64,000 bases of DNA from a virus (taxonomy: Duplodnaviria; Caudoviricetes): IMG/VR virus record IMGVR_UViG_3300046779_000717, positions 4,197 through 68,196 of that record; one strand, given 5' to 3'. Each line of letters opens with the position of its first letter. Position 1 is the stretch's first letter. Of this stretch, positions 9,116-61,509 are shown one piece after another. A program made the position numbers and the translations under genes. The notes beneath the pieces are model-generated. The model worked only from the letters and a program-made list of their open reading frames with translations, had not been told where the DNA came from and did no database searches.

Positions 9116-9197
9116 TTATCATGCAAATTCCACGTATTAAATATCCAAAATTGTTAAAAAATCACAAAAATGGCAGATAAGGATTTTGCGAAATGTA

Positions 9198-9227
9198 TTG
9201 CTTTTTGATACTTTTCGCATATATTTG
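9198..9227 (+). promoter_or_regulatory. Bacteroidota promoter driving the ncRNA cluster
   Basis: TTG (9198-9200), 19 nt spacer, TATATTTG (9220-9227). Confidence 0.7.
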
Positions 9228-9240
9228 CTTTAAAATAATT

Positions 9241-9350
9241 AGCCCAAAGTACACGGGATCGAAAACAGGAGGGCATACCGTAAGATCTGCTCACTCGTCC
9301 TCTGAATCGTTAGTCAGCATAGTTATCGGGTTCTATGGTATGCGATAAGC
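9241..9350 (+). ncRNA. Candidate structured RNA with loop-loop pseudoknot
   Basis: Stems GAGGGC/GTCCTC (9269-74/9297-302) and TTATCG/CGATAA (9323-28/9343-48); loops ATACCGTA (9275-82) and TATGGTAT (9334-41) are complementary. Confidence 0.5.
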
Positions 9351-9365
9351 GAAAAACTCGGCAAT

Positions 9366-9475
9366 AGTCAGGTGGCGGAATGGTAGACGCTACAAGTAAG
9401 TCCAACGATGACCTAAGGCATGATGACCGAAGGAGTTACTGGTTGGTATTACAGGTTCGAATCCTGTCCTGACTA
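9366..9475 (+). ncRNA. tRNA-like element 1 (anticodon arm replaced by extended stem-loop)
   Basis: Acceptor AGTCAGG/CCTGACT, D arm TGGCGGAATGGTAGACGC, T arm ACAGG-TTCGAAT-CCTGT; 60-nt central domain with no 7-nt anticodon loop. Confidence 0.8.
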
Positions 9476-9480
9476 CAAAA

Positions 9481-9552
9481 GCATTGATAGCCTTCCACAC
9501 TGAGTGGCGGACTTTTAAGGAAGTGCCTTAATGACGGCTCGGAAAGACGAGC
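9481..9552 (+). ncRNA. Candidate structured spacer RNA between tRNA-like elements
   Basis: Nested GCATT/AGTGC, CCTT/AAGG and CCAC/GTGG stems, then GCTCG-GAAAGA-CGAGC hairpin preceded by TAATGACG. Confidence 0.4.
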
Positions 9553-9557
9553 AACAT

Positions 9558-9666
9558 AGCCAAGTGGCGAAAGGTTGGGGACGTCCCCGACGTGGTAGTC
9601 GCTATCCTGTAATAAGGAGATGCTGAGTTAAAAACGGCGTTCAAGGTTCGAGTCCTTGCTTGGCTA
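9558..9666 (+). tRNA. Atypical class II (Tyr-like) tRNA with hairpin inserted in the D loop
   Basis: Acceptor AGCCAAG/CTTGGCT, T arm CAAGG-TTCGAGT-CCTTG, long variable arm ATGCTG/CGGCGT; CTGTAA in a misregistered anticodon stem; GTTGGGG-ACGT-CCCCGAC inserted in the D loop. Confidence 0.7.
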
Positions 9667-9746
9667 CAAACTATATTTTGGCAAAATTGCTAACAATTGC
9701 CAGTTAATTGTGAAAAACTGGTTTACAACTATGCCGTGTTGTGAAT

Positions 9747-9754
9747 TAACTTTG
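9747..9754 (+). promoter_or_regulatory. Bacteroidota -7 promoter box
   Basis: TAACTTTG upstream of ATG 9818. Confidence 0.45.
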
Positions 9755-10003: not shown

Positions 10004-11102
10004 ACAAGAGGCTGTTGATCTTTTCTCAGAAGGAAAGATGAATAAGTCCCAGATTGCTCGCTTTTTAAAAGAGAAGCACAATTTGCCGATGTCTGTAGAG
10101 ACAGTGAGAAAGGAAGTTTGTAGGCAAGTAGGAAAACACAAGGCTCTTCTTGAAGAGTGTAACAAACTGGGAATACCAGCAGATCAAGTAAAACATTACT
10201 GGCACAAGGGAAAACACTTCTCTATTAACGTAAAGGGCTCTGAAGCTCCGTCATACGACGAGATTAGAGATGAGTTGATCGAGCAGATGTCTAAATACTC
10301 TCCTCAATACCAGTACATCCACAGAAGCCAAAGCAAGGACGGGCACTTGTTGGTGTTAGATCCGGCAGACGTTCACATTGGAAAGCTTGCTAGTTCTTTT
10401 GAGACTGGCGAAGATTACAACAATCAAATCGCAGTACAGCGAGTAAAGGAGGGCGTTAAAGGCATCCTAGACAAGACGGCAGGGTTCAATATCGACAAGA
10501 TACTTTTCATTGCCGGAAACGACATTCTACACATCGATACGCCACGCAGAACTACTACGTCTGGCACGTTCCAGGACACAGATGGTATGTGGTATGACAA
10601 CTTCTTGATCGCTAAGCAGCTGTATATTGAGGTTCTTGAGATGCTTGTTACTGTTGCTGATGTTCACTTCTGCTTCAACCCAAGTAATCACGATTACACA
10701 AACGGATTCTTTTTGGCCGACACGATTCAGTCATGGTTCTCTAAGTCTGAAAATATTACTTTCGACTGCTCTATTGCACACAGAAAGTACTACACTTACG
10801 GGGCCAACATGATTGGATCAACACATGGAGATGGTGCCAAGGCACAGGACTTGCCATTACTTATGGCTCAAGAGTCTCCAATGTCTTGGGCACAGACCAA
10901 ACATCGCTATGTGTATACACACCACGTACACCACAAGACGTCTAAGGACTTTATTGGTGTAACTGTGGAAAGCCTACGCTCACCATCTGGCACTGACAGC
11001 TGGCACGACCGTAATGGCTACAAGGGGGCTCCAAAGGCGGTGGAGGGATTCCTCCACCACCCAGAGCACGGACAGGTTGCCCGCATTACCCACTTATTCT
11101 GA
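9990..11102 (+). CDS. Calcineurin-like metallophosphoesterase with N-terminal HTH
   Basis: DPADVHIGK, AGNDILH, PSNHD, STHGD, HHVHH metal-binding motifs; N-terminal MNKSQIARFL...SVETVRK HTH. Confidence 0.82.
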   Translation: MKSYKQEAVDLFSEGKMNKSQIARFLKEKHNLPMSVETVRKEVCRQVGKHKALLEECNKLGIPADQVKHYWHKGKHFSINVKGSEAPSYDEIRDELIEQMSKYSPQYQYIHRSQSKDGHLLVLDPADVHIGKLASSFETGEDYNNQIAVQRVKEGVKGILDKTAGFNIDKILFIAGNDILHIDTPRRTTTSGTFQDTDGMWYDNFLIAKQLYIEVLEMLVTVADVHFCFNPSNHDYTNGFFLADTIQSWFSKSENITFDCSIAHRKYYTYGANMIGSTHGDGAKAQDLPLLMAQESPMSWAQTKHRYVYTHHVHHKTSKDFIGVTVESLRSPSGTDSWHDRNGYKGAPKAVEGFLHHPEHGQVARITHLF

Positions 11103-14100
11103 TTCTTCTACGTTTTCAGCGCGTTTCTGAATACGTTTGTTGATGTTTTTTGCGACTGTGGCTAAGTCAGAAGGCAGCACTCCGGCAAAGTTACCGGTAA
11201 TCAATAGTGCATTTAGCTTAGCCAAGTCTGCATCTTCTTCTAGTAGTTGTTTTTCTACTTCGTTACCTCTGATCTCTTTAGAGAACTTGCCATCTGCGGC
11301 CATTCTTCCGTAGTCTGAAACCTCTTTTGCTCTATCTATAGCAATACCAAGGGTCCCAAGAATCTTCATCCATGAAGCGTCCTCTCTATCGTAGAACTCA
11401 AACTTCTGATTTTCGTCCTCTATGTCAAACCACTTCTTAGGGATATCCTGTGACATTCCTGTGGCTTCCATTAGATCGTTAACATATCCGCTAACGAATG
11501 CGTCAACGCCTGGAATTGGAGGCAATACGAAATCTTTCATGAAGTTCTGAACTGTAGATGCAGACCTTCTCATGGTTCTTACTTTCTTTTCTTCCTCGTC
11601 ATCCTCCTCGCCCATTATCGCTAGAGCTGTAGCGTACATAACTTCAGAGAAGAACATGCTAAGTCCAGAGAATACAGCCATCTCCGCTAATGCACCAGCC
11701 AATGACTTAGATGCTTCTATCTTGTCTTCAACGCTAGCTACTTTATTAGACAGGATTCTAGAATCAGACCATATTCGTGTCTTCTGGTTCAACACAAATG
11801 TCATCAATGGGAATACACCTCTTCTAACAGCCGCTGTTAATGGGTCTTTACTTGCCAAGAAATCACCCTGCATGTCTGTGTCACTGATGTTTTGTTGTGA
11901 ATCAACCATCATCTGTGCATAGTCTGCAGCTTCTTTGTTTAGCTTGTGGGTATTCCAATCGATATTTGCAGTAGGCAGTCCTTGCTTTTTTAATCCCTGC
12001 TTATAGAAAGATATCCACGCAGCCCTGGCGCCAAATACGTCTGGGTTCTTAAGTGTTATCTCAAGTGCTTTGTTACTCCACTCCGCAATACCATCTATTG
12101 TTCTTAGCGCTAAAGCTTTTTCAGCCTCTACGAGCTTTCTGTTAATAGACTTCAACTCTCCTTGAGATCCTATACCACGATTAGCAATAGGATATCCAGA
12201 CTCGTCGATAAACTTCATGCCTCCGTTAAACAGCGTATGAATGTCTACACGGCCTGTTTGAATCAGCGTATTTACCAATGGTGGGATAAACTGTTTAAAC
12301 GGCTGTGCTATGCTAAACAAGGCCTTTGCAGTACCAAAAGCAGCAGCAGTATTTATAGCTCTGTTTACCTTTGCGAGTTCCCCTTGGTCTACATATTCTC
12401 CACCTTTGATTCTATTAACGTATCCGACAAGCCTCTTCTTGTATATGTTTTTGTCTTCGTTATTAGAAAACAACTTTGAGAAGTTGTTTGAGGTGACAAA
12501 TCCTTTCATTCTGGCAACAGAAGATGCTGTTTCTACATCAACCATTGATGAAGTCATAGCATTTACGTTGTTGGTGTCAAAGTCTAGATTTACAATACGT
12601 GTCCTTGTTCCATTCTTGTCTTTAGGAAGCTCTTTGATCCTGTTGTTTTCTTTTAAAGATCCAGACTTAGAGGTATTAACATATTCGAAGTTGCTAAAGA
12701 ATCCAGACTCAAAATCTTCTTCACTTGTAGAAGATATCTCTTTAGTTTGGAATCTGTCAGGTATAAAGTTGGCATCTCTAGAAAGAATTGTGTTATACAC
12801 GTTTCTAGAAACCTCGTCCATTCTGTCATACTTGCTAGCCCACTGAGATACCCACCAGTCAACAGCCTTTTGGTTTGTTTCGCTAACCTTTGACTTGACG
12901 TCTGCGACATTTTTAGATCCTTTTAAGATCTTGTCATACACATTTTTAATAGTCTCGCCTTTCTTAATTTCCGCTTCAGTGTTGGTGTTAGGATCTTTTA
13001 GCGCCTCAATTGTTTGCTCAATCAGTGTTTTGCGCCTATTAAATTCGTCTTGTACCTGGAATTCGTCACCAATCACAGTTCTTGACATAAAGGCAAGCAT
13101 ACCCCTTTCGATAATATTTTCTGCAGTTAAGAAGTCTTTGGCTTTTGAAAATTTAGAGATATACTCCTTAACTATTCCATCAACCATCTTAATTGCTTTC
13201 GCCTTCCCGTTAGATACTCCGGTAACTCCTGACGCATCCATTACTTCAAGAGCCCTAGAAGTGCTACCCCACATAATCTTATTGAGCATCGGAAGACTTG
13301 CAATGTTTTTAGACCACCAACGCCCGATAGACTTAGACTTATTCTTTTTGATAGGTATTGATTTTACCCCTTTCTTTTCTAGCTTGGCCGCACTTAAGCT
13401 TCCGTCATAAGTATTTACAAGGCCAACCACACCAGACGTAATACCGTTAGCGATAAAGTTGTTTGCATACTCTACGGCTTTAATGGCGTCTGTAAGAGAT
13501 AACTCATCCATGTCCATGTTGGCCAATGATGCTAGAGCCTTTCTTTCATCATAAGTCAAGTCAATAGGATCACCTGTGAATGGATCTTCTCCGGTCTTAA
13601 CAATTTGCTTAATGATTGGAGACATGGTAGCCATCATCTCCTTCACGGCGTCTCTAGCCTCTTTCATCTTATCCTCAGACTGCTCTTTTTCTCCTTCAAT
13701 TGCATCAACTACCTTTTTGATTTCGTTGATTGTCATCTTGTCAGACAAGATACCAGCATCTACCAAGTCTTGGTTCTGGCTAAGAAGCTCATTTTTGATT
13801 TGCTCTCTTTGCTTCTGTATTTGCTCGTCGATGTAGTTAATCATGCTTTCCAAGTTGGCAACATCTCTCATCAATGGAGTGCCAACCTTTCTAGCTACAG
13901 ACTTCAACAAGCTATCTGCTACCTCAATGTATTGGTCGATATCTTCAACCATTGATGGGCTGATCTCATTGAAAGCTTTCGCAATCTTCGCTACCTCTGC
14001 TTGGTTTGATTCAGACTTCGCTGCCTTGCTGATGGCGCGTCTTAGCTTAGAGGCCTGTGCCACCTTGTCTTTGTACTCTGCAGTTTGAAGAACGTTTGAC

Positions 14101-17100
14101 ATGTAGTCAATAAACCTATCTCTCATTACTGGATTCAAGATGTTCATCTTGTCGTAGCGAGAGATGATGGCTGTGGCTTGCTTAGCAGAGATTACGCCAC
14201 GCCCAGTCATAGAGCGAAGAGATGTTGAGATTTGCATCCTCAAGTCTTTCACATACGCAACAGCGTCCTTGGCAGCCTTAGCTTCCAGTTTGATTTGGTC
14301 CTTAAGTGCTGTCTTTTCTTTTACTGTTACTTCCTTGGTGTCCTTGATCTCACCCATGATACGAGCCACGGATGGAGCAGTCTTCATCTTCTCACCTCTC
14401 AATTTCTTGAAGTCTCGGATGATTTGCTCACGCTGAGAGTCGTCGGCCCTTTCGTATACTGCTGACTTTTGAATGTATCCAATTGCAGCTGCACTTGCCT
14501 GATTGTAGCTTCCGCCACGATTCATGCTCTTTTCTAGGATGCCTTCAACTTCACCCATCATTCTCTCGTATCCAGGGATTACGGTTACGTCTACCTTTTG
14601 AGAACGAGTAGTTACTGATGGCTTAGCCTTCTCGACCAACAAGATTTTATCTCTTGTAAAGTTTGTTACTTGAAACTTGCTTGTGTCAAATGAACCAAAT
14701 GCATTTTCAGACTCTATCGTCAACACATTCCCGTCAACGGCAACAATATTACCATATTTGCCATATACAAATACTTCGTCTCCAACCTCGAACACATCGT
14801 CTGGTAGTTGTTTGAACCCTTGGTACTCAGCCTCTGGAGTTAATTCCTTTACCGTCTGAGCTCTGTAACTCTTAGGTCCTCCCCAGTTAGTAACGACCAT
14901 GTCGTATCCATTCTCTGCGGCAACCTTGGTAACCCATGCTGCTGCGTTGTTTGAGTCGAATGCGTATTCTGTTGGTCTTGCTTCGTTTCCACGGTTCCTA
15001 TATTCCTGGAATCTACGGCGTGCTTCTGGCTCGAAGTTTTTAGGATCGTTAGAAACCTTACCTCTCTCAGTAGTTCCGTAGAAATATACCTTATCTTTTG
15101 GAACCAATACGGTGTGTGGAATGTCTCCAACACCTTGTTCTTTCTGTCCCTGCTTGGTGTAGTACATTGCAACACCACCAACAGATGAGATTGCAGCAAC
15201 CTCGTCACGTCCTGTGAAGTTCTTTTTGGAACCAGACATTGGCTTAATAGTGTCACGTTTCTCGTCAGAGTAGTGAACGAACAAATAGTTGCCCTTACCG
15301 TCGTCGGTAAGAACTTCGTCTACAACTGTTGGTACAGACTTCTGTGATTTAGATTTAATCACTGGCCCGCCTTCAGAGGCAATACGACCCATACCCATAC
15401 CCATTTGAGCAAGTCCTAGCTTAGCGTTAGACGCTTGCTCTCCAGACATTGTTCTGATGGCTTCTACGGCCTTTGGGCGATAGTTGAATACCTTGAGCAC
15501 TGGAGGCTTGCCGCTTTTCGTTACGATGCTAAAAGGATAGCTTGGGTGTTGATCGTCTTTCTTTACTTCAACGTCCTCATCTACCTCAACAATTGCATAT
15601 GCGTTTCCAGAGTCTAATCCGATCAACAATCTCTCAGTAAGTACTGTTCCAATTTGTTGGCGAATGCCACCCTTGGTGAAACGAATATTCTTATCAGCTC
15701 CTAAAGCTTTTTGAATTTGCTTTATATTTTTCTTGGCAGAATCAAGCTTGCCAATTTCGTCAACTAGTTTACTAAAGAAGTCTCCGCGTCTAGCAAATGT
15801 AGAGTCAGAGACATTCATAAACTTGTCTTCAATATCCTTTTGTATTTTCTTTGCAGAGTCGCTTCCAGAGAAGTCGATATCGTAAGCCTTCCCAGCTATG
15901 GTCAAAGCTTTCCTAAAGTCTGCTGTAGAAATCAAGTTGTCAAACACCAATTCCTCTAGAATACGCATTGCTGCCTTTACTCCCTGAACTGAGCTGATCA
16001 TTTTGTCTTGACTTCCGCGAACTAGAACCATACGTCCAATTCCGTCAGTAGATTCTTTTCTAGACTTATTGATGTATCCAGCAAGTGTCTTGGCACTAGA
16101 TTGCTTTCCAGAAGCCCATACGTTGCCAAATTTCAATACATAGTAAATACCGCCATTACCCTCCATAATTTGCTTGCCTTTGTAATTTACATTACCTACA
16201 AGCAAGTTATCTGGCTGGTGTGTAGCAACTGGTTGACCAGCAGCGTCATCAATAGATGCGTTTTGAACAACAAGTCCTCTATCTACCAAGTCCTTGAATT
16301 GGGCCTCGTCTTCAAAGTATTGAATATCAAAGTCTCCAATCTTCTGGCTTCTATTGCTAAATACCTTTTCAGTATTCTTAATAGTCTCTGTATTTTCTTT
16401 TGGCCTAAAGAACTCTTTAACGCTCTCTCCCTTAGATACCTTTTCAGATATCGTAGTCATGAAGCCAAGGATATCCTCTGGTGTTGCTTGGTCCAAGAAC
16501 TGCTTCTTGCCGGTAAACAACTGAGCAAACTTGTTGATGATGTCACCAATCTTCTGCAAAAGAGTCTTCTGTTGAGCCGTTAGTGGTCCCTTTCCAAAGC
16601 CTGAAGCTACCAACATACCACCAAGCTCAGCCATGTACTCTGAGTATTTAACGGCCTCGTAGCCACGCTGGCTAGCAAATGCGTCTAGCTTGTCTGCAAT
16701 ATCCTCAAATCCTTGAGCCCTTAGCTGTGCGTCAATGCTGTCAACAAACTCTTTCATTCGAGCTTGATCGTCAGCAAATGCATCGTTCAGCAAAATCTCC
16801 CACGCCTCGTGACCTACGGTAGTAGAGTCTGCAGTCTCTTTGTTGAATACCATGGCAAATGGCTTGCCGTTAACGAACACGGTCTGTCCTCTGGTCTCTG
16901 TGGTGAAGCCACCAGCAACCTCGCCAGCTTGGCTTGGAGCGACTGATGATAATGCCTCTGCTATCTGCATCTGTGCGTCATCTGTGTTCTCAGCAACGAT
17001 AATCTTCAGGTCTGGAGCCACCATATTCAATGACTGAGCAGACTTGTTTACGGCTTCGTTGATGCTTGGTTGTAGTGGGTACTCTGTCTTTGCCTGATCT

Positions 17101-19397
17101 ACAAGTTGATCACGGTATGCCATTGCCTCATCGTAATCTTCAAACTTGCGTTCTTCAATCTCAAGCTTGTTTTGTGGGTCGTACACCATCGCCACTACGT
17201 CAGGTGTTCCGTGCTTCTCTTTGTTCCAGCCCTCTGGAGCGTACTCCTCGTTGAACGGAACTCTAGACACAACTCTGAAACCGGCCTTCTCATAAACTGG
17301 AGTAAGGTAGTTGTCAAAGTTGTCTAACTTAATACCACCAGCCTCAACGGCTTTTTGAAGTAGCTTCTGAGCTACTCCCTTTGCTTTTGATGTAGCCTTC
17401 TTAAATAACCCTTTGATGTCTCCTTCTTTAGAAACCACAACACCACCATCTTCATCGGTAATAACAGTGCCTTCTTTTGCTGCTTCTTCTGTTACGGAAT
17501 CAACAGACCAGTACTGTTCTGGATCTGACTGCTTGGTTTCTTGCAGGTCGGCAACGTATTGCTTTACTACTTCTTCTTTGGCTTGACCTTCTTCGGCAAC
17601 GCCTTGAGGTTCTGGTTGGGGTTTTCCTTCGACCACTTCTTCGCCAACTCTGGCTTCTGGCTGTACAGGTACTTCACTTGTTGTTTGCTTTTGAATGGCA
17701 TCTTCTTCTATTTTTTTAATTTGTTTCTTTCGTGACTCAAGCTCTAGTTCTAAAGCTTCTCTTATGATTGGATCGGCTTCTCCATCAATCTCAACTTCCA
17801 AATCCATTGCGTCTTGCCTCAATGAGGCGTATAACGGCCTAGACTCTTCTGGTATTACACTTAGTTTTTCAAACGCTTTTCTTTGAAGAGTTTCATTTTC
17901 TTGAACCTTCTTGTTGATTAGCTGTTCTATTGCAGTTCTTTTTTCTTCTGTTAGATTTGGATCTGCAGCAATCTCCTTTGCACGTATAATGGCTTCTTGG
18001 TTTTTGGCAACCTGTTCTCTCTTGTCTTGCGGCAAAACAGTTTGAGCTAGCTTAACAACTCCACCAAGCCCCATACCCATGGCATTTCCAGCGATGAACG
18101 CATCGGCAGTTCCTGACAGCACGTCTCTTTCTGGATCAATCCCTCCGTATTTATCCGCAGCATTCTGTGCTATGGTTGTAGCTACCTCTGACAATCCTTC
18201 TGCTGAAGATCCAAATACCATTGGATACTTCATGGTAAGGTCGTCAACCATGTCAAGTATCCCCTTTTCTACAATCTTCTTTCCAACTTCTGGACCTTCT
18301 CTTTTTATGATATTTTTACTTACTCTAGCAATTGACCCTAGACCGAAAAGTTCAAACATAACTTCAGCGCCTCCATAGGCCAATGCGTTTGTATACTTTT
18401 GTTTTTCGGTTATGTCAGCACCTTCAAGATCTGCTACTCTTGTTTGAGCGCTGTTAAGGCCAAGCAATGTCATACCTGCAGGGCCACCTCCAGACATCAT
18501 AACAGCCAACATTTGAGGAGTTGATGAAGCTAATTCATTAGACAACAATCTAAAACCATCAGCATAATCACCTCTAGTAAATCTATCTGTAACATCACCC
18601 TCAACCTTCTGCATCTTAGACTCCATTTCCTGAGCCCTTTCTTTTAGCATTTTCGCTGGCAAGTTGCCCTCTTTAAACTTAGCCATTGTAGGCTCAAGAG
18701 CAGCCATGATTGTGGCTTTCTGGACTGGATCCATAAACGCCTTTGTCAAGTCATATGCAAAAGAAGGTGTGCCAGCAAGTTCGCCCAAGGCTTTAAAAGT
18801 AGTAGCTACTAATTTGTTGGTAATGTCCGTATCTACCTTTTCCCCCTTGTATTCCAGTTCGTATTTAGGGCCAGGTATTACAGCAGCCTTAGCTTCTTCT
18901 TCCGTGGCTCCGCCAGCCAGTATACGGCCAACTCCACCAAAGAATCCTTCGTCTTTTCTTGGCTCAACTACAGTAGATGTTTCAGCTACTTCTCCCATCA
19001 TAGGGGCCATAGCCATAGCTTCTTCTGGAGTAAGAGCTTCTGGCTTTATAGCTGCTTGCTTTGCGGTTACTCTTTTCTGAAGGTCGCTTTCTGCAGCAGA
19101 TACATTATACCTTTTTCTTGCAGAAGGCTCCGAAGGCCCAGCTTTCTGAGTCTCTCCAGAAACCGAAAAAGCATCTTTTGCTTTCGGTTGACCAAGAGAT
19201 TCCGTACTTTTTTTTTTAAATCCGTAAGCCTCTTCAAATTCGTCGATAGATCCTACTTCATATTCAGGAGCGATTACCTCTTTAAAAAACAACTGTCTCT
19301 TTTTAGGATCTGACAGATACTTTTGAAAGTCTTGAATCGATCCTACATCATAGGTCTTTGATACTTCTGAGTAAAGTGCGTCTAATTTATTTGGCAT
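11094..19397 (-). CDS. Giant internal virion / ejection protein, polyvalent type
   Basis: 2767 aa, last gene of the structural operon; GNAT-like, metallopeptidase-like and ART-like segments plus a long helical C-terminus. Confidence 0.75.
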   Translation of the reverse strand: MPNKLDALYSEVSKTYDVGSIQDFQKYLSDPKKRQLFFKEVIAPEYEVGSIDEFEEAYGFKKKSTESLGQPKAKDAFSVSGETQKAGPSEPSARKRYNVSAAESDLQKRVTAKQAAIKPEALTPEEAMAMAPMMGEVAETSTVVEPRKDEGFFGGVGRILAGGATEEEAKAAVIPGPKYELEYKGEKVDTDITNKLVATTFKALGELAGTPSFAYDLTKAFMDPVQKATIMAALEPTMAKFKEGNLPAKMLKERAQEMESKMQKVEGDVTDRFTRGDYADGFRLLSNELASSTPQMLAVMMSGGGPAGMTLLGLNSAQTRVADLEGADITEKQKYTNALAYGGAEVMFELFGLGSIARVSKNIIKREGPEVGKKIVEKGILDMVDDLTMKYPMVFGSSAEGLSEVATTIAQNAADKYGGIDPERDVLSGTADAFIAGNAMGMGLGGVVKLAQTVLPQDKREQVAKNQEAIIRAKEIAADPNLTEEKRTAIEQLINKKVQENETLQRKAFEKLSVIPEESRPLYASLRQDAMDLEVEIDGEADPIIREALELELESRKKQIKKIEEDAIQKQTTSEVPVQPEARVGEEVVEGKPQPEPQGVAEEGQAKEEVVKQYVADLQETKQSDPEQYWSVDSVTEEAAKEGTVITDEDGGVVVSKEGDIKGLFKKATSKAKGVAQKLLQKAVEAGGIKLDNFDNYLTPVYEKAGFRVVSRVPFNEEYAPEGWNKEKHGTPDVVAMVYDPQNKLEIEERKFEDYDEAMAYRDQLVDQAKTEYPLQPSINEAVNKSAQSLNMVAPDLKIIVAENTDDAQMQIAEALSSVAPSQAGEVAGGFTTETRGQTVFVNGKPFAMVFNKETADSTTVGHEAWEILLNDAFADDQARMKEFVDSIDAQLRAQGFEDIADKLDAFASQRGYEAVKYSEYMAELGGMLVASGFGKGPLTAQQKTLLQKIGDIINKFAQLFTGKKQFLDQATPEDILGFMTTISEKVSKGESVKEFFRPKENTETIKNTEKVFSNRSQKIGDFDIQYFEDEAQFKDLVDRGLVVQNASIDDAAGQPVATHQPDNLLVGNVNYKGKQIMEGNGGIYYVLKFGNVWASGKQSSAKTLAGYINKSRKESTDGIGRMVLVRGSQDKMISSVQGVKAAMRILEELVFDNLISTADFRKALTIAGKAYDIDFSGSDSAKKIQKDIEDKFMNVSDSTFARRGDFFSKLVDEIGKLDSAKKNIKQIQKALGADKNIRFTKGGIRQQIGTVLTERLLIGLDSGNAYAIVEVDEDVEVKKDDQHPSYPFSIVTKSGKPPVLKVFNYRPKAVEAIRTMSGEQASNAKLGLAQMGMGMGRIASEGGPVIKSKSQKSVPTVVDEVLTDDGKGNYLFVHYSDEKRDTIKPMSGSKKNFTGRDEVAAISSVGGVAMYYTKQGQKEQGVGDIPHTVLVPKDKVYFYGTTERGKVSNDPKNFEPEARRRFQEYRNRGNEARPTEYAFDSNNAAAWVTKVAAENGYDMVVTNWGGPKSYRAQTVKELTPEAEYQGFKQLPDDVFEVGDEVFVYGKYGNIVAVDGNVLTIESENAFGSFDTSKFQVTNFTRDKILLVEKAKPSVTTRSQKVDVTVIPGYERMMGEVEGILEKSMNRGGSYNQASAAAIGYIQKSAVYERADDSQREQIIRDFKKLRGEKMKTAPSVARIMGEIKDTKEVTVKEKTALKDQIKLEAKAAKDAVAYVKDLRMQISTSLRSMTGRGVISAKQATAIISRYDKMNILNPVMRDRFIDYMSNVLQTAEYKDKVAQASKLRRAISKAAKSESNQAEVAKIAKAFNEISPSMVEDIDQYIEVADSLLKSVARKVGTPLMRDVANLESMINYIDEQIQKQREQIKNELLSQNQDLVDAGILSDKMTINEIKKVVDAIEGEKEQSEDKMKEARDAVKEMMATMSPIIKQIVKTGEDPFTGDPIDLTYDERKALASLANMDMDELSLTDAIKAVEYANNFIANGITSGVVGLVNTYDGSLSAAKLEKKGVKSIPIKKNKSKSIGRWWSKNIASLPMLNKIMWGSTSRALEVMDASGVTGVSNGKAKAIKMVDGIVKEYISKFSKAKDFLTAENIIERGMLAFMSRTVIGDEFQVQDEFNRRKTLIEQTIEALKDPNTNTEAEIKKGETIKNVYDKILKGSKNVADVKSKVSETNQKAVDWWVSQWASKYDRMDEVSRNVYNTILSRDANFIPDRFQTKEISSTSEEDFESGFFSNFEYVNTSKSGSLKENNRIKELPKDKNGTRTRIVNLDFDTNNVNAMTSSMVDVETASSVARMKGFVTSNNFSKLFSNNEDKNIYKKRLVGYVNRIKGGEYVDQGELAKVNRAINTAAAFGTAKALFSIAQPFKQFIPPLVNTLIQTGRVDIHTLFNGGMKFIDESGYPIANRGIGSQGELKSINRKLVEAEKALALRTIDGIAEWSNKALEITLKNPDVFGARAAWISFYKQGLKKQGLPTANIDWNTHKLNKEAADYAQMMVDSQQNISDTDMQGDFLASKDPLTAAVRRGVFPLMTFVLNQKTRIWSDSRILSNKVASVEDKIEASKSLAGALAEMAVFSGLSMFFSEVMYATALAIMGEEDDEEEKKVRTMRRSASTVQNFMKDFVLPPIPGVDAFVSGYVNDLMEATGMSQDIPKKWFDIEDENQKFEFYDREDASWMKILGTLGIAIDRAKEVSDYGRMAADGKFSKEIRGNEVEKQLLEEDADLAKLNALLITGNFAGVLPSDLATVAKNINKRIQKRAENVEESE

Positions 19398-22783: not shown

Positions 22784-25700
22784 TTAGCAAGCTTCTGTTG
22801 ACGTCCAGGCCGTACCATTCCAGTAGTGTGCATTTGTTGGAGCTGCTTGATTCTTGTAGTATCCAGGAGACGCAACAGACGTTCCAGAAGAGTTCAAGTA
22901 CAATGTGCCGCTCACACCGATAGTTCCGTTGGTCCAGTACGCATAGTAGTTGGTGTCTGCACAAACGGCCGACTTAGTACCTGCATCTGTCAAGAACACC
23001 TCTGTAAGGCCTGGAGCCTCACCGGTGCATATAGCGCAGCTAGCAGATGTTACTAGCGTTGTAGGAACTGTGAATGTGTATGTCTGTGGCAACAAGTCAG
23101 CAGTCTTGGTCCAGCAGTTACCGTCTGTGGTCTTAAAGATAGTTCCGTTAGCGATTACTCTTGTTACAGCATCATAAAGAACCGCACTGTACGTGCTGTT
23201 ACACAATGTAGCTTGGTAGTATCCGCCAGCAGGAGGAGTCGGAGGAGTCGGGGGAGTTGAGCCACAGTTGAACACTGACTCTACAACTCCGTCATCACCA
23301 ACCAGAATTGACTGATTGTTGTTTATCTTATACCAAAGACCGCCGCCCTCGAATACATTTCCACCTCTAGACTGCAAATAAACAGTGTCCCCAACAATTG
23401 GGTAAGTGTAGTATCCATTGTGGTACAGGTAGTCCCACCCAAGAACTAGCAAAGCACAAGCTGATGCAGCAGTTGATTGACCGTTTATAAACACATCGAA
23501 TGAAGTTGCAGGAGAATCGTTCACAACAGACGATACGGTAACTTGAGTGGATGGGCTAGTGCCAACACAGTTTGTTGCAGTAAATGCTGCCTGATAGTCT
23601 CCAATGCCCTCTACTGTTCCGCTAATAACACCAGTTGCAGAGTCAAAGTTAAGACCAGCCGGCAATGAGAAGCCAGAGCATGGCCCATCAACTGTCAACG
23701 TAGCGTCGTCAGATCCAGAGATTTTGCTAACAGTTCCAGACGCGAAGCATGTTTCTGTGGTCTGCCCACCAGATACAACTACTGTTTGGTAGTATCCTGT
23801 TTCGCAATTAGCCCCGTAGAATACAGCACCCTCTGATCCTCCGAACAACTTAAAGTTGCTGCACGCAGAAATAAGATTGTAGCTAGTAGGATTGTTGGTG
23901 GCAGGAACCTTGATATTCACAACCTGTCCAGCAACGAACTCCATGTTAGAAGCTGTAACGATCGGAGGCGCTGTCTCTGCACAAACGCAAGTTGCGATTT
24001 CGGTAACAACACCAGATGAAGTAACAAACATCAAGTTTGTGCCTGTCTTGTGGTATGCGTTTCCTCCGTCATAAACAGAAGATCCAGTTGAGTCGTTGTA
24101 AATTGTGCAACCAACAGACACTACACCGCCATCAGCGTTGTGATACTTTGTGGTAGATGGTGTCTGAGAGCACACGTTATCGATCGTGCCATTTGCAGTA
24201 GCAAGTGTGAACGATGTCAAAGATGCACAAGCAGTAGTAGCTGTCCAGCTATTTGATGATAGTGGAGAGTAAACTGTAAGAACAGTTTCTGCACTTGAGT
24301 TTTTAACATAGCTCAAAGTCCCAGTGCTATTGTTTACTAAGCCATCGTATGGCTCAACCAAATTGATTTCGCTATCTGGAACGCCAGCTGCGATCAATGC
24401 GTTGTAGTTGGCCAAGCTGTTAAGACCAACATATCCAGAGTCTGCAACCACGTTGCCGCCTACAGAGATAGTAAATCTGTCAGGAGTTGACTGTGCGTCG
24501 TAGGTATAGGATACTTTACCATTGCTAGACCCCATGTTTACCACGACGGGCGTAGTAGCGGCAACTCCAGTGTAAGATACAGACGATCCACAGCTTATGG
24601 TGTTTCTGTAATCCCAGATAAGATACAGGTATTGTTCGTTAGATGGCGCATTGTACACAAAAGTTCCAGAGTACTCAGTACCAGACAATGTCATGGATAT
24701 AGGAGTAGCCAAGCCGATGACGGCTGCGTAATCCTCTTGCGTGTACTCTGTATTAGACACTAAGTAGTATACCTTGTTGCCGGCAGTTGGAATGAATGGA
24801 TTCAATTCAGCATCCAATGCAGATGTGGCATCCTTGTAAGCATACACAGTAACTGTATCTCCAGGTGCAGGAATTCCGTTTATTCCAGCCACGTCTGAAG
24901 CTGTGTCGTAAAGTGAAACTGGAGCTGGCTTGAATATTATGTCGTTAACCTCGTAGCCAGTGGTTCCTGAGCTTGTGTAGTTGTACTTCAAGCTGCTAAC
25001 CTTTCCTGTCTCCTTTGGAGCGCCTACAACGATCGTAGATCTTCTTTTAACGACTGTAGCAGTCTGTGTGATTGTGAAGGTCCTAACTACACCACAGCTA
25101 GCTGTGATTGTAAGTGTAGCCGTTCTAGATATGCCAGTGTTATTTGCAGCGATGTCTGCCTCTACGTCTTGGTTTCCTGTGCCACTTGATGGTGCAACAG
25201 TCATCCATGAAGGAATGTTGGTGATAACCCATCCAGAGTTAGACTGAATATCAAAGATGTTTTTGCTCTGAGATGTTTTATCTACAGTGATTGAAGATGG
25301 TGTTACAACGAGTTCACATGGTGATGCGGTATCGTCATTTGATGCAAGCACATACATTTGGTTGTATGGGTCAAACGTTCCAATCTTCTGCTTATTAATG
25401 CCAGAGATGAACAAGTCCTTGAACCAGTCACGCATGCCCTGCATAGAAATTTCTTGAACAGAGTTTCCAACAATTCTCAAAGCAACACCACGCCTAGCAT
25501 CTGTAAAGAACAAGTCGCTACCCCATACAGCAAAGCTTTCTGGGTTTAAGCTAATTCCATATTCGCCAGGGAAAGAGATTTGAGTTCCAAGAACCTCTGG
25601 AGTACTAGAGATTGTACCTCCACCAACAGAGTCGCTGATCAAGTTCTTTCCGTACAATACCACAGATATCTTGTTCTCTTGGAATACAACCAAGTCAGTA

Positions 25701-28639
25701 TCTCTAGCGTAAAGCTTTTGAATACTACCAAAGAATCTGTCTACGTACTTAAAGTTCGCAGTAGACAAGTTGAACTCATTCAATCTATTTGTTCCAGTAT
25801 CTTCACGGAAAACACCACTATATGTAAGCCCGTTTGTTACCTGCTCTTGCTCGTAGTTCTCTATGTTTGACAATACACGTGGGCTGTACTGCATCAAAGA
25901 ACCATTGAAGTCATCTCTGATACGGTCGCTTTCTACACCATTTCTGAAGCAGAATGCATTGTATAAGTTATCCAAGCTAACAACTGCAGACTTCTTAGAA
26001 GTTCCTGCACCTGCTCTTGTTTGGTTTGTTACGTTTCCAGAGTGAAGGCCATTGACTACGTCGAATGTAGCTGCTTCATGGTAGATATCCGCATCGCTAG
26101 AATCTGGAACTGTCTCAAGTACTGTTGGTCTTTCTACTTGTGTAATAGAGAAATCTACAGTCAATAAAGACCTTTCGCAATCAGTAGCCGATCCAGGAGT
26201 GTTACCATATCCAAGAATGTACATTCTGATGGCACCCTTATTGGCTTGAGCACTCGTATTGACGTTGTCGACCATCTGGAATAAGATAGACCTTCTGAAG
26301 AAGATGCTTCTATATCCCTTGTTACCATCGGCAATCATGACGAACTTAGTGTATGCCCCATCCTCAATAAACCACTCTTCAATGTTTGCGTAGTTTCTTG
26401 AAGACACAAATGTTTGAAGTGGCTGATCAGTTCCGCCAGCAACTCTAGTTTCGTTGATCTTGATCGTTATTACAGCTCCTGCCTTAATTTCCAAGTCGTC
26501 TTGGCTTATTGGACCAGTCGCGGTCAAATTTCCTGGAATTATAGCACAAGACCCAATAGCGTCGTTCTTTCCGTTAAACGCAGTTCTGTCGCCAAAGTAG
26601 TTAAGACCGTTTACTGATCGGCAGTTGATTCTCCAGCTGTCACCAATAGTGTGACCGGTTGTTGTAGCAAATTTGATGCTCGCAATATCCTTGCCAGTGT
26701 CATCTTTCAATATTTGTGCAGCCCCAGTAATAGGTATCTTAGAGCCCAGTACTTGAGACGACCCAAACATTGTGTACTTAAACGTGCCTACGCCATCGAT
26801 AGTTACGGTGTATCTAATGTCCTTTACGGTATTGTTAGATATCCATCCGTTGCTAGTCAATGCCAAGTTGTTCAACCCAGTTCCGTAGAAAATAGGGTCT
26901 TCGATTACCGCAAATCTATTTGTTAATGGATTTATGGTTTCTTTGCTGCACAACAATCTTCCAACCCCAGTGCGTCCTTTACCTATAGACTTGTAAACAA
27001 ATAGGTTATCTTCGTTAAAAGCACTGTTGTTTCCAATCTTAATCTTCAAGTAAACGCCAGGGATATTAGGTCTTGCTGGATTGTTTAAGAAGTCTTTTGG
27101 CTTAACAGCAACGTCAAGCACTTTGTATTGCTCTGCGCTATATGTTATCCCAAGTGGGTTTGCCTTGATTGTGATGTAGTCGTTTGCCTTTACTTTGTCA
27201 ACGTCTGACTCGTTGATCAGCATGTATACAAATGGCCCGTCTACATAGAACAGCGTTGGATAAATTGTATAGTAAGCACCCTTGTTTTGCTTAATCATGA
27301 CACGATACTTCGTGGCAAAAGCAGGAGCTTCGTTGTTAATTGTCAATACTAACTTGTTGCCGGTGTCAGAGTTATCTGGACCAATATAAACAGAGTTGTC
27401 TACAGAGGTAAGGACCGTACTCATTCTTCCATATGCGTCAACATAAGATATACCGATTTCGTAATCTCTGTCGCTACGCATGGTCTTCACTGGAGACCCA
27501 ACGACATAAGACGTAGACAGCTTACTTTCTGGAACAACATCGACGCCATAGTCCATGGTTATGCCCCTTGACGCAATGTCTACGATGTTGTAAAACTGCG
27601 TGTAGTTACCATATACCAATCGGCTACCAATGAGCTCCTGAGCCTTTGCTTTCAACGGAACGTTGTCAAACAGTCTTGTCAACTGGTTAGCGGCGAGAAC
27701 TCCGTATATCTTGTTATTTGAGAAAGACTGGAATGTAGCCGTAGTGCCAGAAAGACTGACAGAGCTAATGTTTCCAGACAGTATTGCTTCTCTAGAGAAG
27801 TTTTCAAGTACGTTTACATTTAGTCCAGAAGAGTCTCTGAACACCAACTGAATCTCCTTTACGTTCTCAGATCCGATATCGAATGAAACATCTACTGCGT
27901 TGTAGTTGTTCACCATCGACTTGTTTACGCCGGTTCCGTAGTCATACTGGAAATCTTTTGGAACAAACGCAACATCAGAGAAAGGAGCAAGTGAGCTATA
28001 CTCGTTGTTCTGGTACTTGTATCTGTAAGAGAAGTACAAGAACTTGTCTGTAATGTTGTTTGTGTCCGTGCCATCATTCTTCAACGCCAATGTTGGTGCC
28101 TTCAATGGTGGCTTCACAATCACATTGATGTCCTCTTCTGTGAATGCATTGTATGCGTAGTTTTGCTTTGTGTCTATTCTTCTTGGCTGGTTAAGGCCAT
28201 CAGTCCAGAAAAGCAAGTCGCTAATATAGTTTACTCCAGTAATTAAGTACTGAGTGTTGAAATTTAAGATGTTTGCAGCACCAACCCTTGTGTCCATGAC
28301 GTGAACAGTGGTCAATCCTGTAAGCTCGTTGTAAGAAGCGATAAGGTTTCCGCTTGCCGCCTTTATGAACCAGAATATTAAGAACTCAGAAGGAACCGCA
28401 ATTGACCCAATGGTCTTTGCTCCGGCCAAGGAGAATGCAGATCCAGAAAACGCAGTAGCTGCAGCAGCAAGGCTACTAACCTTGGTGTTACCCAATTCAT
28501 TCGACAAAGCTCCAACATCAGAACCCTCGGACGTGCCGACGGTTATGTTCATTGCATCTCTGTATTGTCCATCAGGGATCAGGCGCTCGTCCAGATCCTT
28601 GTTCATTATACCAGCTACTAAGCTTCTCTTTAATTCCAT
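22784..28639 (-). CDS. Tail stabilisation/nozzle protein with C-terminal Ig-like (BACON, He_PIG-like) extensions
   Basis: N-terminal GIMNKDLDERLIPDGQYRDAMNI; YKYQNNEYSSLAPFS; GEYGISLNPESFA; BACON-like segment at about 25070-25310 and LPAGLNFDSATGVISGT at about 23560-23690. Confidence 0.75.
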   Translation of the reverse strand: MELKRSLVAGIMNKDLDERLIPDGQYRDAMNITVGTSEGSDVGALSNELGNTKVSSLAAAATAFSGSAFSLAGAKTIGSIAVPSEFLIFWFIKAASGNLIASYNELTGLTTVHVMDTRVGAANILNFNTQYLITGVNYISDLLFWTDGLNQPRRIDTKQNYAYNAFTEEDINVIVKPPLKAPTLALKNDGTDTNNITDKFLYFSYRYKYQNNEYSSLAPFSDVAFVPKDFQYDYGTGVNKSMVNNYNAVDVSFDIGSENVKEIQLVFRDSSGLNVNVLENFSREAILSGNISSVSLSGTTATFQSFSNNKIYGVLAANQLTRLFDNVPLKAKAQELIGSRLVYGNYTQFYNIVDIASRGITMDYGVDVVPESKLSTSYVVGSPVKTMRSDRDYEIGISYVDAYGRMSTVLTSVDNSVYIGPDNSDTGNKLVLTINNEAPAFATKYRVMIKQNKGAYYTIYPTLFYVDGPFVYMLINESDVDKVKANDYITIKANPLGITYSAEQYKVLDVAVKPKDFLNNPARPNIPGVYLKIKIGNNSAFNEDNLFVYKSIGKGRTGVGRLLCSKETINPLTNRFAVIEDPIFYGTGLNNLALTSNGWISNNTVKDIRYTVTIDGVGTFKYTMFGSSQVLGSKIPITGAAQILKDDTGKDIASIKFATTTGHTIGDSWRINCRSVNGLNYFGDRTAFNGKNDAIGSCAIIPGNLTATGPISQDDLEIKAGAVITIKINETRVAGGTDQPLQTFVSSRNYANIEEWFIEDGAYTKFVMIADGNKGYRSIFFRRSILFQMVDNVNTSAQANKGAIRMYILGYGNTPGSATDCERSLLTVDFSITQVERPTVLETVPDSSDADIYHEAATFDVVNGLHSGNVTNQTRAGAGTSKKSAVVSLDNLYNAFCFRNGVESDRIRDDFNGSLMQYSPRVLSNIENYEQEQVTNGLTYSGVFREDTGTNRLNEFNLSTANFKYVDRFFGSIQKLYARDTDLVVFQENKISVVLYGKNLISDSVGGGTISSTPEVLGTQISFPGEYGISLNPESFAVWGSDLFFTDARRGVALRIVGNSVQEISMQGMRDWFKDLFISGINKQKIGTFDPYNQMYVLASNDDTASPCELVVTPSSITVDKTSQSKNIFDIQSNSGWVITNIPSWMTVAPSSGTGNQDVEADIAANNTGISRTATLTITASCGVVRTFTITQTATVVKRRSTIVVGAPKETGKVSSLKYNYTSSGTTGYEVNDIIFKPAPVSLYDTASDVAGINGIPAPGDTVTVYAYKDATSALDAELNPFIPTAGNKVYYLVSNTEYTQEDYAAVIGLATPISMTLSGTEYSGTFVYNAPSNEQYLYLIWDYRNTISCGSSVSYTGVAATTPVVVNMGSSNGKVSYTYDAQSTPDRFTISVGGNVVADSGYVGLNSLANYNALIAAGVPDSEINLVEPYDGLVNNSTGTLSYVKNSSAETVLTVYSPLSSNSWTATTACASLTSFTLATANGTIDNVCSQTPSTTKYHNADGGVVSVGCTIYNDSTGSSVYDGGNAYHKTGTNLMFVTSSGVVTEIATCVCAETAPPIVTASNMEFVAGQVVNIKVPATNNPTSYNLISACSNFKLFGGSEGAVFYGANCETGYYQTVVVSGGQTTETCFASGTVSKISGSDDATLTVDGPCSGFSLPAGLNFDSATGVISGTVEGIGDYQAAFTATNCVGTSPSTQVTVSSVVNDSPATSFDVFINGQSTAASACALLVLGWDYLYHNGYYTYPIVGDTVYLQSRGGNVFEGGGLWYKINNNQSILVGDDGVVESVFNCGSTPPTPPTPPAGGYYQATLCNSTYSAVLYDAVTRVIANGTIFKTTDGNCWTKTADLLPQTYTFTVPTTLVTSASCAICTGEAPGLTEVFLTDAGTKSAVCADTNYYAYWTNGTIGVSGTLYLNSSGTSVASPGYYKNQAAPTNAHYWNGTAWTSTEAC

Positions 28640-41860: not shown

Positions 41861-42430
41861 TTAATAAACCCGAATATATATACTTTGTCCGTTAGGAGTA
41901 TGATCTATTGCTCCAGAAGAAGCACTTGCTCCTGGGGTGACTTGGAACGGAGATCCAGGGAAAGCAGTCCATGAAGAACCATTATACGAGTACTCGACAT
42001 TTGCCGTTGGGAATGGTGGACTAGTTGGATTGGCGTTAAAGTTCACCTGTAGCGTTACTTGGTCCCAGTGCGGAACCCCTCCACCACCCTGTGTAGTATT
42101 TGGCGGAACCCCGTTAACCATGAATGGAGATACAGCTGGGTTTAGTCCAGACGTACCAGATCCACCAGACTCTTGCACCCAGAAGTCGCAGCTGATTAAG
42201 TTTGCTGGAACAGACGACTGAACTTGAAACGAGTAGCCAACTTTTGCCTCTAGATCGTAGAACCCGCTCATCTTTACAGTTGTCTGAGCGACATAACCGT
42301 AAGCATCAGCATACCCATCGAATAGCTTGTAGTCGTTAAACTGAGAGAATAGGGCGGGACTTGGAGTGCTTATGTCCAAGTCCGTTATCAAATCCCCTAC
42401 CAATATTACCCCTGATGTTGGTGTGCTCAT
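41861..42430 (-). CDS. Tail-associated protein
   Basis: 189 aa, ATGA-coupled to the fibre gene, Ser/Pro/Gly-rich and beta-rich. Confidence 0.6.
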   Translation of the reverse strand: MSTPTSGVILVGDLITDLDISTPSPALFSQFNDYKLFDGYADAYGYVAQTTVKMSGFYDLEAKVGYSFQVQSSVPANLISCDFWVQESGGSGTSGLNPAVSPFMVNGVPPNTTQGGGGVPHWDQVTLQVNFNANPTSPPFPTANVEYSYNGSSWTAFPGSPFQVTPGASASSGAIDHTPNGQSIYIRVY

Positions 42431-61257: not shown

Positions 61258-61304
61258 GCACGGGATATGAACGGATATATGGGGTTCAAATCCCCACCCG
61301 TGCG
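61258..61304 (+). ncRNA. tRNA-like minihelix 2
   Basis: GCACGGG/CCCGTGC, TGGGG-TTCAAAT-CCCCA, 15-nt linker ATATGAACGGATATA. Confidence 0.8.
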
Positions 61305-61387: not shown

Positions 61388-61509
61388 AGCAGAGTGGCGA
61401 CATGGTTGTCGCATGAGAGATGATGGACTAATTGCCATCCCTGTTGCATAGCAGAAAGTAGCTTAAATAAAGCGCTCATTTGCAGGTTCGAGTCCTGCCT
61501 CTGCTACCA
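61388..61509 (+). ncRNA. tRNA-like element with branched 57-nt insert replacing the anticodon loop, CCA encoded
   Basis: AGCAGAG/CTCTGCT+ACCA, D arm GCGAC-ATGGTT-GTCGC, ATGAG/CTCAT stem, T arm GCAGG-TTCGAGT-CCTGC. Confidence 0.8.

Follow-up and report, generated by a model that had tools for sequence, protein, structure and literature searches.

Anticodon-less stable RNAs that resemble tRNA-Leu have been known in phages as a kind since the 1980s and are still unexplained. RNA1 of phage T5 (NC_005859, 30501-30644) lies among tRNA genes and is annotated as 'tRNA-like stable RNA with unknown functions'. It has a 6-bp acceptor-like pairing, and about 80 nt replace its anticodon and variable arms. 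The tRNA-like domain of tmRNA and RNAs of the mascRNA type keep an acceptor and a T arm, have lost the anticodon arm and are substrates of RNase P. An engineered 'tRNA scaffold' for the expression of recombinant RNA carries a cargo in place of the anticodon loop, and tRNA enzymes process and stabilise the chimera (PMC3401473, PMC3753655). The TMERs of murine gammaherpesvirus 68, several copies of which are found per genome, express and process small RNAs by means of a tRNA-like unit that is not aminoacylated (PMC4337559).

The element described here, E1, is a complete tRNA-framed RNA gene of 110 nt including the discriminator A73 (9366-9475, plus strand), and belongs to a large RNA family found in uncultured freshwater phages. 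Its phage genome of 68,196 bp is rated complete in IMG/VR; the window, the whole stretch of DNA that was analysed, comprises 64 kb of it. The phage is a podophage-like relative of the Flavobacterium 'elemo' and Cellulophaga phages; the RNA family is absent from the elemo-type phages. Three tRNA-framed RNA genes (E1, E2 and E3) and no genuine tRNA are present in the whole genome, which also encodes three giant minus-strand proteins of 2767, 1951 and 2340 amino acids (11094-19397, 22784-28639 and 42427-49449). A blastn search of the 1-kb region around the element against cultured phages gave no match, and E1 alone, searched against cultured phages with E up to 1, matched only T-arm pieces of ordinary tRNAs.

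The tRNA frame of E1

E1 reads AGTCAGG-TG-GCGGAATGGTAGACGC-(60 nt)-ACAGGTTCGAATCCTGT-CCTGACT-A from 9366 to 9475 on the plus strand. The 5' strand of the 7-bp acceptor stem, AGTCAGG (9366-9372), pairs with CCTGACT (9468-9474), and the latter is followed by the discriminator A at 9475. The D arm (9375-9390) is of the tRNA-Leu type, GCG(G)-AATGGTAG(A)-CGC, with A14, A15 and G18G19, and is read as GCGG-AATGGTAGA-CGC; the T arm, ACAGG-TTCGAAT-CCTGT (9451-9467), is perfect. Between the two arms a 60-nt centre or 'cargo' (9391-9450), whose last base is U48, replaces both the anticodon arm and the variable arm. All acceptor, D-arm and T-arm features of the original prediction were found in place, as were the pairing of TAC (9391-9393) with GTA (9446-9448) and a TT linker before the T arm (9449-9450), as at 61388. 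The 'Leu/Tyr' type that had been assigned to the frame was too wide, the frame being specifically like that of tRNA-Leu(CAA).

In a local E-value search, RF00005 matched E1 with 39.6 bits (E 1e-6), a score above the gathering score of 29, and skipped 49 nt in the anticodon region. By this model the acceptor stem, the D arm and the T arm with its conserved loop are those of a tRNA, and the tRNA frame of E1 is far beyond chance. Rfam at gathering thresholds gave no matches in the whole 64-kb window because the filters of Rfam hide the element, and ARAGORN found 0 tRNAs in the whole window. Neither ARAGORN nor the Rfam alignment yields a 5-bp anticodon stem with a 7-nt loop (U33, purine 37) or an anticodon for E1, and the alignment places only three weak pairs in the anticodon region. 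E1 is neither a decoding tRNA nor an intron-bearing tRNA. Two other classes were rejected: tmRNA, for which ARAGORN and Rfam find no candidate in the window and 110 nt is too short, and YrlA or bacterial Y RNA, for which RF02553 has no match in the window, the 5' and 3' ends of E1 forming an acceptor stem and not the Ro-binding stem of a Y RNA.

One of the two cases named in the original prediction as overturning it was a functional tRNA with an intron, the removal of which yields a normal tRNA. With introns allowed, ARAGORN calls an Arg-CCG tRNA with a 29-nt intron, and 802 of 1596 artificial deletions are called as tRNA, the program being permissive once the frame is present; one RNA run also contains contigs in which 9390 is joined to 9451. 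Against this, the three elements give unrelated, low-grade calls (Arg, Tyr and Phe) and no consistent anticodon, a 5-bp stem with a U33 loop is missing, and a group I intron, the only type of tRNA intron known in bacteria, needs far more than 60 nt. The Rfam introns gave no match in E1 or the window, and E1 was rejected as an intron-bearing tRNA of the group I or bulge-helix-bulge (BHB) type. Metatranscriptome contigs hold the insert intact and unspliced, and the joints of 9390 to 9451 most likely come from other family members with different centres, for example record 12 of X18, which has 79 other letters between the same two points. Family centres of 17-20 nt, finally, cannot hold an anticodon arm. 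Excision of an intron is judged very unlikely.

The family and the origin of its frame

A 24-mer composed of the T arm and the 3' acceptor strand of E1 occurs in at least 119 IMG/VR contigs of 4 to 246 kb, with up to 6 copies per contig, and up to six within 5 kb. Upstream of nearly all copies stand AGTCAGG and the same leucine-type D arm, and the two halves of the frame enclose centres of very different length and unrelated sequence, sometimes with an extra hairpin in the D loop. A pattern search alone yields at least 130 distinct elements with this frame and unrelated centres. The 143 unique centres are A-rich, fall into about 128 unrelated types and are roughly 17 to over 110 nt long; the short members carry only small hairpins, for example a GNRA tetraloop hairpin. 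No motif beyond helix-forming words is common to the 143 unique centres, and no Rfam family was found inside the centres of ten member-rich loci. With a mean folding z of -0.61 the centres are mildly more structured than their shuffles. The novelty is a very large RNA family of Bacteroidota phages, with one constant shell and swapped centres, and no description of it was found in the catalogues and literature searched, which held few subscription journals.

A covariance model of the frame, R1 (AGUCAGG-UG-GCGGAAU(U)GGUAGACGC ... U-ACAGGUUCGAAUCCUGU-CCUGACU-A), was used with 55 bits or more as the mark of a family member. Exactly three members were found in the window, namely E1 (76.3 bits, by construction, since E1 is in the seed of R1), E3 (55.5 bits) and E2 (55.3 bits). 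One frame model matches all three, which fits the proposal that E1 is of the same design as the element at 61388. Over the fetched loci R1 gave 213 matches in 100 loci, and genuine tRNAs scored below about 52 bits. In the best 150 members 98.5% of the cells are paired and 12 of 15 pairs have double changes, mostly in the D stem, whose pairs show 6, 15 and 13 of them. The acceptor helix is paired in 99.5% of the cells, with double changes in 6 of its 7 pairs; the near invariance of the acceptor and T stems in the 150 is partly owing to how members were collected. The T loop is invariant or nearly so in these members, 138 of which have A73, and U8, A14, A15, G18G19 and U48 are retained in the family.

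No constant protein neighbour was found, the best cluster being DUF932 in 17 of 135 loci. In one phage (L258, 3357-4004) a frame of about 125 amino acids, named methylglyoxal-synthase-like by eye from its translation, lies between two family members. Both of these are preceded by the same flank of about 22 nt (AGTAGTTGGTAATTAAAA...), and the frame resembles a cassette that entered at the constant 5' end. Other RNAs were noted inside tRNA/TLE arrays, namely a freshwater-1 RNA (RF02979) at L113 4124-4186, with 70.1 bits just below the gathering score of 72, and, in another phage, a weak YrlA-like match of 35.3 bits at L172 11258-11367. The 'tRNA-Undet' genes of Tenacibaculum phage pT24, which score 36.6 bits or less, were rejected as members. 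They form a near-identical pair (L272, 5790-5868 and 6157-6235) with an oversized hairpin in the anticodon region (UCGCGGGUAUAUUACCCUCGA), and represent another sort of unusual tRNA, here from a cultured Bacteroidota phage.

Genuine phage tRNA-Leu(UAA) genes that stand in arrays with family members differ from them in acceptor stem (GCCNGGG) and T arm, and the frame is therefore a lineage of its own. A search of 185,579 species genomes gave 16 occurrences of the 24-mer, each in a metagenome bin and each with an insert, with a leaning towards Bacteroidota. When R1 was applied to 81 genomes from the class to which one of these bins belongs, only normal tRNA-Leu of 80-86 nt (47-61 bits) were found, the exception being the bin's own, phage-like contig. 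The best-scoring host tRNA is tRNA-Leu(CAA), ACCCAGG-TG-GCGGAATCGGTAGACGC...CCTGGGT-A. E1 matches it in the unusual A1-U72 pair, in 5 of 7 acceptor pairs, in the D arm (GCGGAATCGGTAGACGC in this tRNA), in A73 and in C74 with an A-rich trailer, and the tRNA-Leu(CAA) of another host has the T arm GCAGGTTCGATTCCTGT. Unlike this tRNA, E1 is without the anticodon arm and the long variable arm, and pairs 2:71 and 3:70 differ. By these sequence likenesses the frame derives from Bacteroidota tRNA-Leu(CAA).

Leucine determinants present in E1 are A73, the leucine-type D arm and the tertiary elements A15-U48 and G18G19. Bacterial LeuRS does not read the anticodon, and the identity of E. coli tRNA-Leu lies instead in a tertiary set such as the bases retained in the frame. 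The constant frame might itself be the working part, a mimic of the top half of tRNA-Leu that sequesters, or competes for, a host factor that binds tRNA. Such a factor could be leucyl-tRNA synthetase, a processing enzyme, or a toxin or defence enzyme that attacks acceptor ends or elbows; the centre would then be filler that is tolerated, drifts and is swapped. This alternative accounts for a frame whose letters hardly change from one phage to another, however different the phages, while the genuine tRNA-Leu genes next to it vary, for the retention of A1-U72 along with A73, A15-U48 and G18G19, for the indifference of LeuRS to the anticodon, and for centres that are hyperdiverse, weakly structured and as short as about 17 nt. 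It fits poorly with the centres that recur across phages with compensatory changes, with the E1 centre of L248, which is as conserved as its frame, and with the several copies with different centres per genome, which a pure frame function does not need. Ranked second, it is considered possible but doubtful.

The locus and the exchange of inserts

L235, L269 and L271 carry copies of the E1 element with 100% identity, and the copy in L258 has 98%. For the copy in L248 the identity is 92% in the centre and 88% in the 3' frame, and its D loop holds a 37-nt insert. The copies occupy different arrays with different neighbours, and since their 100-nt flanks are at background identity (53-63%), identity begins and ends at the tRNA ends. 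The pattern AGTAAGTCC..GGAGTTACT gave 37 matches in viral contigs, of which 4 are true relatives and the rest chance occurrences in coding sequence. The insert of E1 is counted as real because it is conserved in other phages, and the data argue that inserts are units under selection, and mobile; recent transfer without selection may explain the identical copies in different phages. Other centre types also show compensatory changes, such as C-G to U-A, or a stem around a fixed GCUGGGUAA loop in L108 and L141. The D-loop insert of about 37 nt (TTGCTCT..AAGC..GGAGTTG) is common to L248 12862-13008 and L091 1501-1624, the centres of which differ, so there are two independently exchangeable sites.

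With at least 130 elements having a common frame and unrelated centres, and the E1 centre conserved at 92-100% in unrelated contexts, the proposal of a tRNA scaffold with a cargo domain has gained support. Homologues unconstrained in length and sequence, which had been named as evidence against it, do exist across the family; within the E1 cargo type, at 92-100% identity, they do not.

E1 and E2 lie between the ribonucleotide reductase gene and the exonuclease gene. The gap there is a slot for RNA genes, and its payload differs in each of the relatives L007, L008 and L011. A putative -7 promoter element of the Bacteroidota type, TATATTTG (9220-9227, plus strand), stands at the head of the RNA cluster; the surrounding CATAT(A/C)TTTGC is kept before the different payloads of these three relatives and is gone in L004. 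The promoter-like motif alone is not enriched in the window. A leader RNA (9241-9350, plus strand) with the core GCATACCGTAAGATCTGCTC lies between the promoter and E1. This core is common to L008 and L011, where it is part of a CCCC...GGGG hairpin, behind which a T run follows. The closest relative, L004, with an exonuclease 95% identical, is without the whole 516-bp RNA block, which is therefore dispensable. A family member near the exonuclease was seen in 3 of 80 related loci.

E2 (9558-9666, plus strand; RF00005 28.6 bits) has an interior made up of a pseudo-anticodon hairpin of 4 bp and 6 nt and a variable-arm-like hairpin, and its centre folds with a z of -3.2. The D loop of E2 holds the palindromic hairpin GGGGACGTCCCC (9577-9588); at the equivalent place the relative L096 has the D-loop hairpin AGGGATATCCCT, changed on both sides and covarying. 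Directly 5' of E2 a conserved hairpin, GACGGCTCGGAAAGACGAGCAACAT (9533-9557, plus strand), may be a processing signal, and hairpins of this type, with compensatory changes in the stem, precede members in L159 (GCTTG...CAAGC) and L235 (GCTG...CAGC). At the position of E2, L008 (2550-2660) and L009 (2551-2655) keep the E2 acceptor AGCCAAG/CTTGGCT and the trailer around a different interior, which is without the Leu D arm and has the T arm GAGGG-TTCAAAT-CCCTC. E3 (61388-61506, plus strand) has a 70-nt centre; RF00005 matches it with 33.1 bits and skips 57 nt, and it is the only member in the window with an encoded CCA (61507-61509). A mini tRNA-like element (61258-61303) consists of a 7-bp acceptor GCACGGG/CCCGTGC, a 4-bp hairpin and the T arm TGGGG-TTCAAAT-CCCCA, followed by G-CAAA. 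It gave a weak mascRNA-like match of 21.3 bits and is not matched by R1.

The sharp borders of the elements would also fit a role at the level of DNA, in which recombination or insertion at the constant 25-nt ends reshuffles cassettes of RNA inserts and small genes between phages, the RNA being a by-product. Identity stops exactly at the element borders, the payload of the ribonucleotide reductase-exonuclease slot varies in relatives and is empty in L004, the E2 orthologue of L008 combines the E2 acceptor stem with a different interior, and in L258 the methylglyoxal-synthase-like gene stands between two members with a duplicated 5' flank. A DNA site, however, has no need of a covarying D stem, an intact T loop and the U(-1) and C74 signals described below; the element is present in RNA libraries, and no recombinase was found as a regular neighbour of family members. 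A purely DNA-level role is therefore thought improbable, and cassette shuffling is probably how the family evolves, not its purpose.

The absence of the element from the closest relative, L004, together with the missing anticodon, might also suggest a functionless, decaying tRNA-Leu pseudogene. This is highly improbable, as the frame is perfectly preserved, identical copies exist in several phages, hundreds of relatives show covariation and the genes have a promoter slot of their own. Nor is E1 read as a remnant of a decayed array, because the complete phage has three such genes and no genuine tRNA, and hence no tRNA array to decay from. The intron and pseudogene readings are nearly excluded.

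The internal details of the E1 insert are weaker than the frame. Pairing of AGTAAGTCC (9395-9403) with GGAGTTACT (9432-9440) in 8 of 9 positions was confirmed, as was the 28-nt loop (9404-9431) with GATGACC at 9407-9413 and 9422-9428 and ATGATGA at 9420-9426. Shuffles of the 60 nt produce such an 8-of-9 helix in 5.5% and a repeated 7-mer in 5.1% of cases, the folding energy of the insert is ordinary (z -0.36), and the proposed 9-bp stem is not thermodynamically special. RNAfold and RNAalifold favour a pairing of CCAAC with GUUGG, so that the insert has two candidate folds, the AGUAAGUCC/GGAGUUACU stem and CCAAC/GUUGG. The few natural variants fall on loop positions in one fold and on wobble-compatible or improved pairs in the other, and both folds are compatible with these variants, which are too few for covariation within the cargo type. 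In view of the shuffle frequency of about 5%, the z value and the alternative pairing, the 'elongated stem' is one possible fold only and not the settled structure it had been taken for.

The hint of a box C in ATGATGA likewise did not hold, as a matching box D is absent from any fixed place. AUGAUGA is present and CUGA absent in E1, CUGA occurs at differing places in relatives (before it in L258, after it in L248), and the best snoRNA match to E1 has E 5.3. E1 was thus rejected as a box C/D (k-turn) guide RNA, which has RUGAUGA and CUGA boxes in conserved register. The longest runs of complementarity between the inserts and the phage's own genome are 9-12 nt and not above those of shuffles.

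Processing, proposed role and comparison with known systems

The borders of family members carry signals of the tRNA type. U stands at -1 in 128 of 149 members (86%) and A at -2 in 74%; C follows at +74 in 147 of 149 (99%), then an A-rich stretch, and CCA is encoded in 4 of 149. The U(-1) and C74 signals are also those of genuine tRNAs in these arrays, which, like a host tRNA-Leu, have the same type of 3' trailer. E1 conforms, with T at 9365 and C74 at 9476 followed by AAA, and without an encoded CCA. No phage CCA-adding enzyme (PF01743) was found in this genome.

Part of the region 9150-9750 is contained in 20 public runs from 17 studies, all of fresh water or similar, and four RNA libraries from four studies were compared with it. 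One holds a contig of 112 nt that equals 9363-9474 without mismatch, and two more hold pieces of the E1 element of 96 and 95 nt; the local flanks of E1 are uncovered in these three libraries. A contig of the fourth covers the leader (9179-9377) and continues into a D loop of the E2 type. Uncovered parts of 9150-9750 and the joints of 9390 to 9451 were given no weight. As these are assembled contigs, which may include DNA and in which true ends are not visible, they are a hint, not proof, that E1 is expressed as a discrete RNA.

The reading preferred here, with a probability of roughly 55%, is that E1 is a tRNA-processed, stable scaffold RNA whose exchangeable 60-nt insert is a specific effector. 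E1 would be transcribed with the leader and E2 from a dedicated promoter in the ribonucleotide reductase-exonuclease gap. Host tRNA enzymes would then excise it, as the conserved signals suggest, by RNase P cleavage at U(-1)/A1, 3' trimming and CCA completion at A73-C74, and it would accumulate as a stable L-shaped RNA of about 110 nt, for which the RNA-library contigs give a hint. The constant frame would serve processing, stability and possibly recognition by leucyl-tRNA synthetase, and the insert would do the specific work, as a decoy, sponge or aptamer that binds a partner from the host or the phage. Inserts may be swapped between phages by recombination in the constant 25-nt ends, to which the sharp identity boundaries point.

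A wider generalisation is put forward tentatively, as possible rather than probable. Bacteroidota phages would possess a natural modular 'tRNA chassis', a Leu shell processed and protected by host tRNA enzymes, carrying a large, fast-turning set of RNA modules that phages exchange at its ends, each neutralising or hijacking a different host factor, for example as decoys against defence. To our knowledge, Hfq and ProQ are absent from the phylum.

If the scaffold-and-cargo reading of E1 is true, the family would amount to a large and so far unexploited collection of small phage RNAs, with hundreds of different modules, in a phylum whose RNA biology is poorly known. Gene callers overlook the family or label its members as odd tRNAs (ARAGORN calls other members Glu, Pro, Cys or Leu), by which censuses of phage tRNAs are distorted.

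Among the known systems, tmRNA differs from E1 in its reduced D arm, alanine identity, pseudoknots and tag reading frame. The TMERs have no sequence relation to E1 and carry their cargo hairpins 3' of the tRNA-like unit, with release by RNase Z, a eukaryotic host and transcription by Pol III (PMC4337559). The engineered tRNA scaffold has the same architecture and presumed logic as E1 (PMC3401473, PMC3753655). It is man-made, whereas E1 occurs naturally, is of the leucine type and is one member of an evolving family; the processing of E1 is predicted from sequence signals. TMERs and engineered scaffold can be regarded as functional analogies only; if scaffold and cargo hold true, the family would be the natural counterpart of the latter.

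The closest known relative of E1 is probably T5 RNA1, which has the same architecture and a weak sequence relation (24.7 bits). Like E1 it has a leucine-type D arm (CCGGAATTGGTAGACGG) and a T arm (GAAGG-TTCAACT-CCTTC); the T arm of T5 RNA2 (GCAGGTTCGAATCCTGT) is almost identical to that of E1, and RNA2 is without the Leu D arm. With R1 the two T5 RNAs score 24.7 and 27.8 bits, weak values beside the 55 or more of members, and with RF00005 24 bits. They differ from E1 in acceptor sequence, in their enterobacterial host and in being single genes without a family of swapped inserts. Should E1 be a scaffold with a cargo, it would provide a first way into the old problem of the 'tRNA-like stable RNAs' of T5 and T4.
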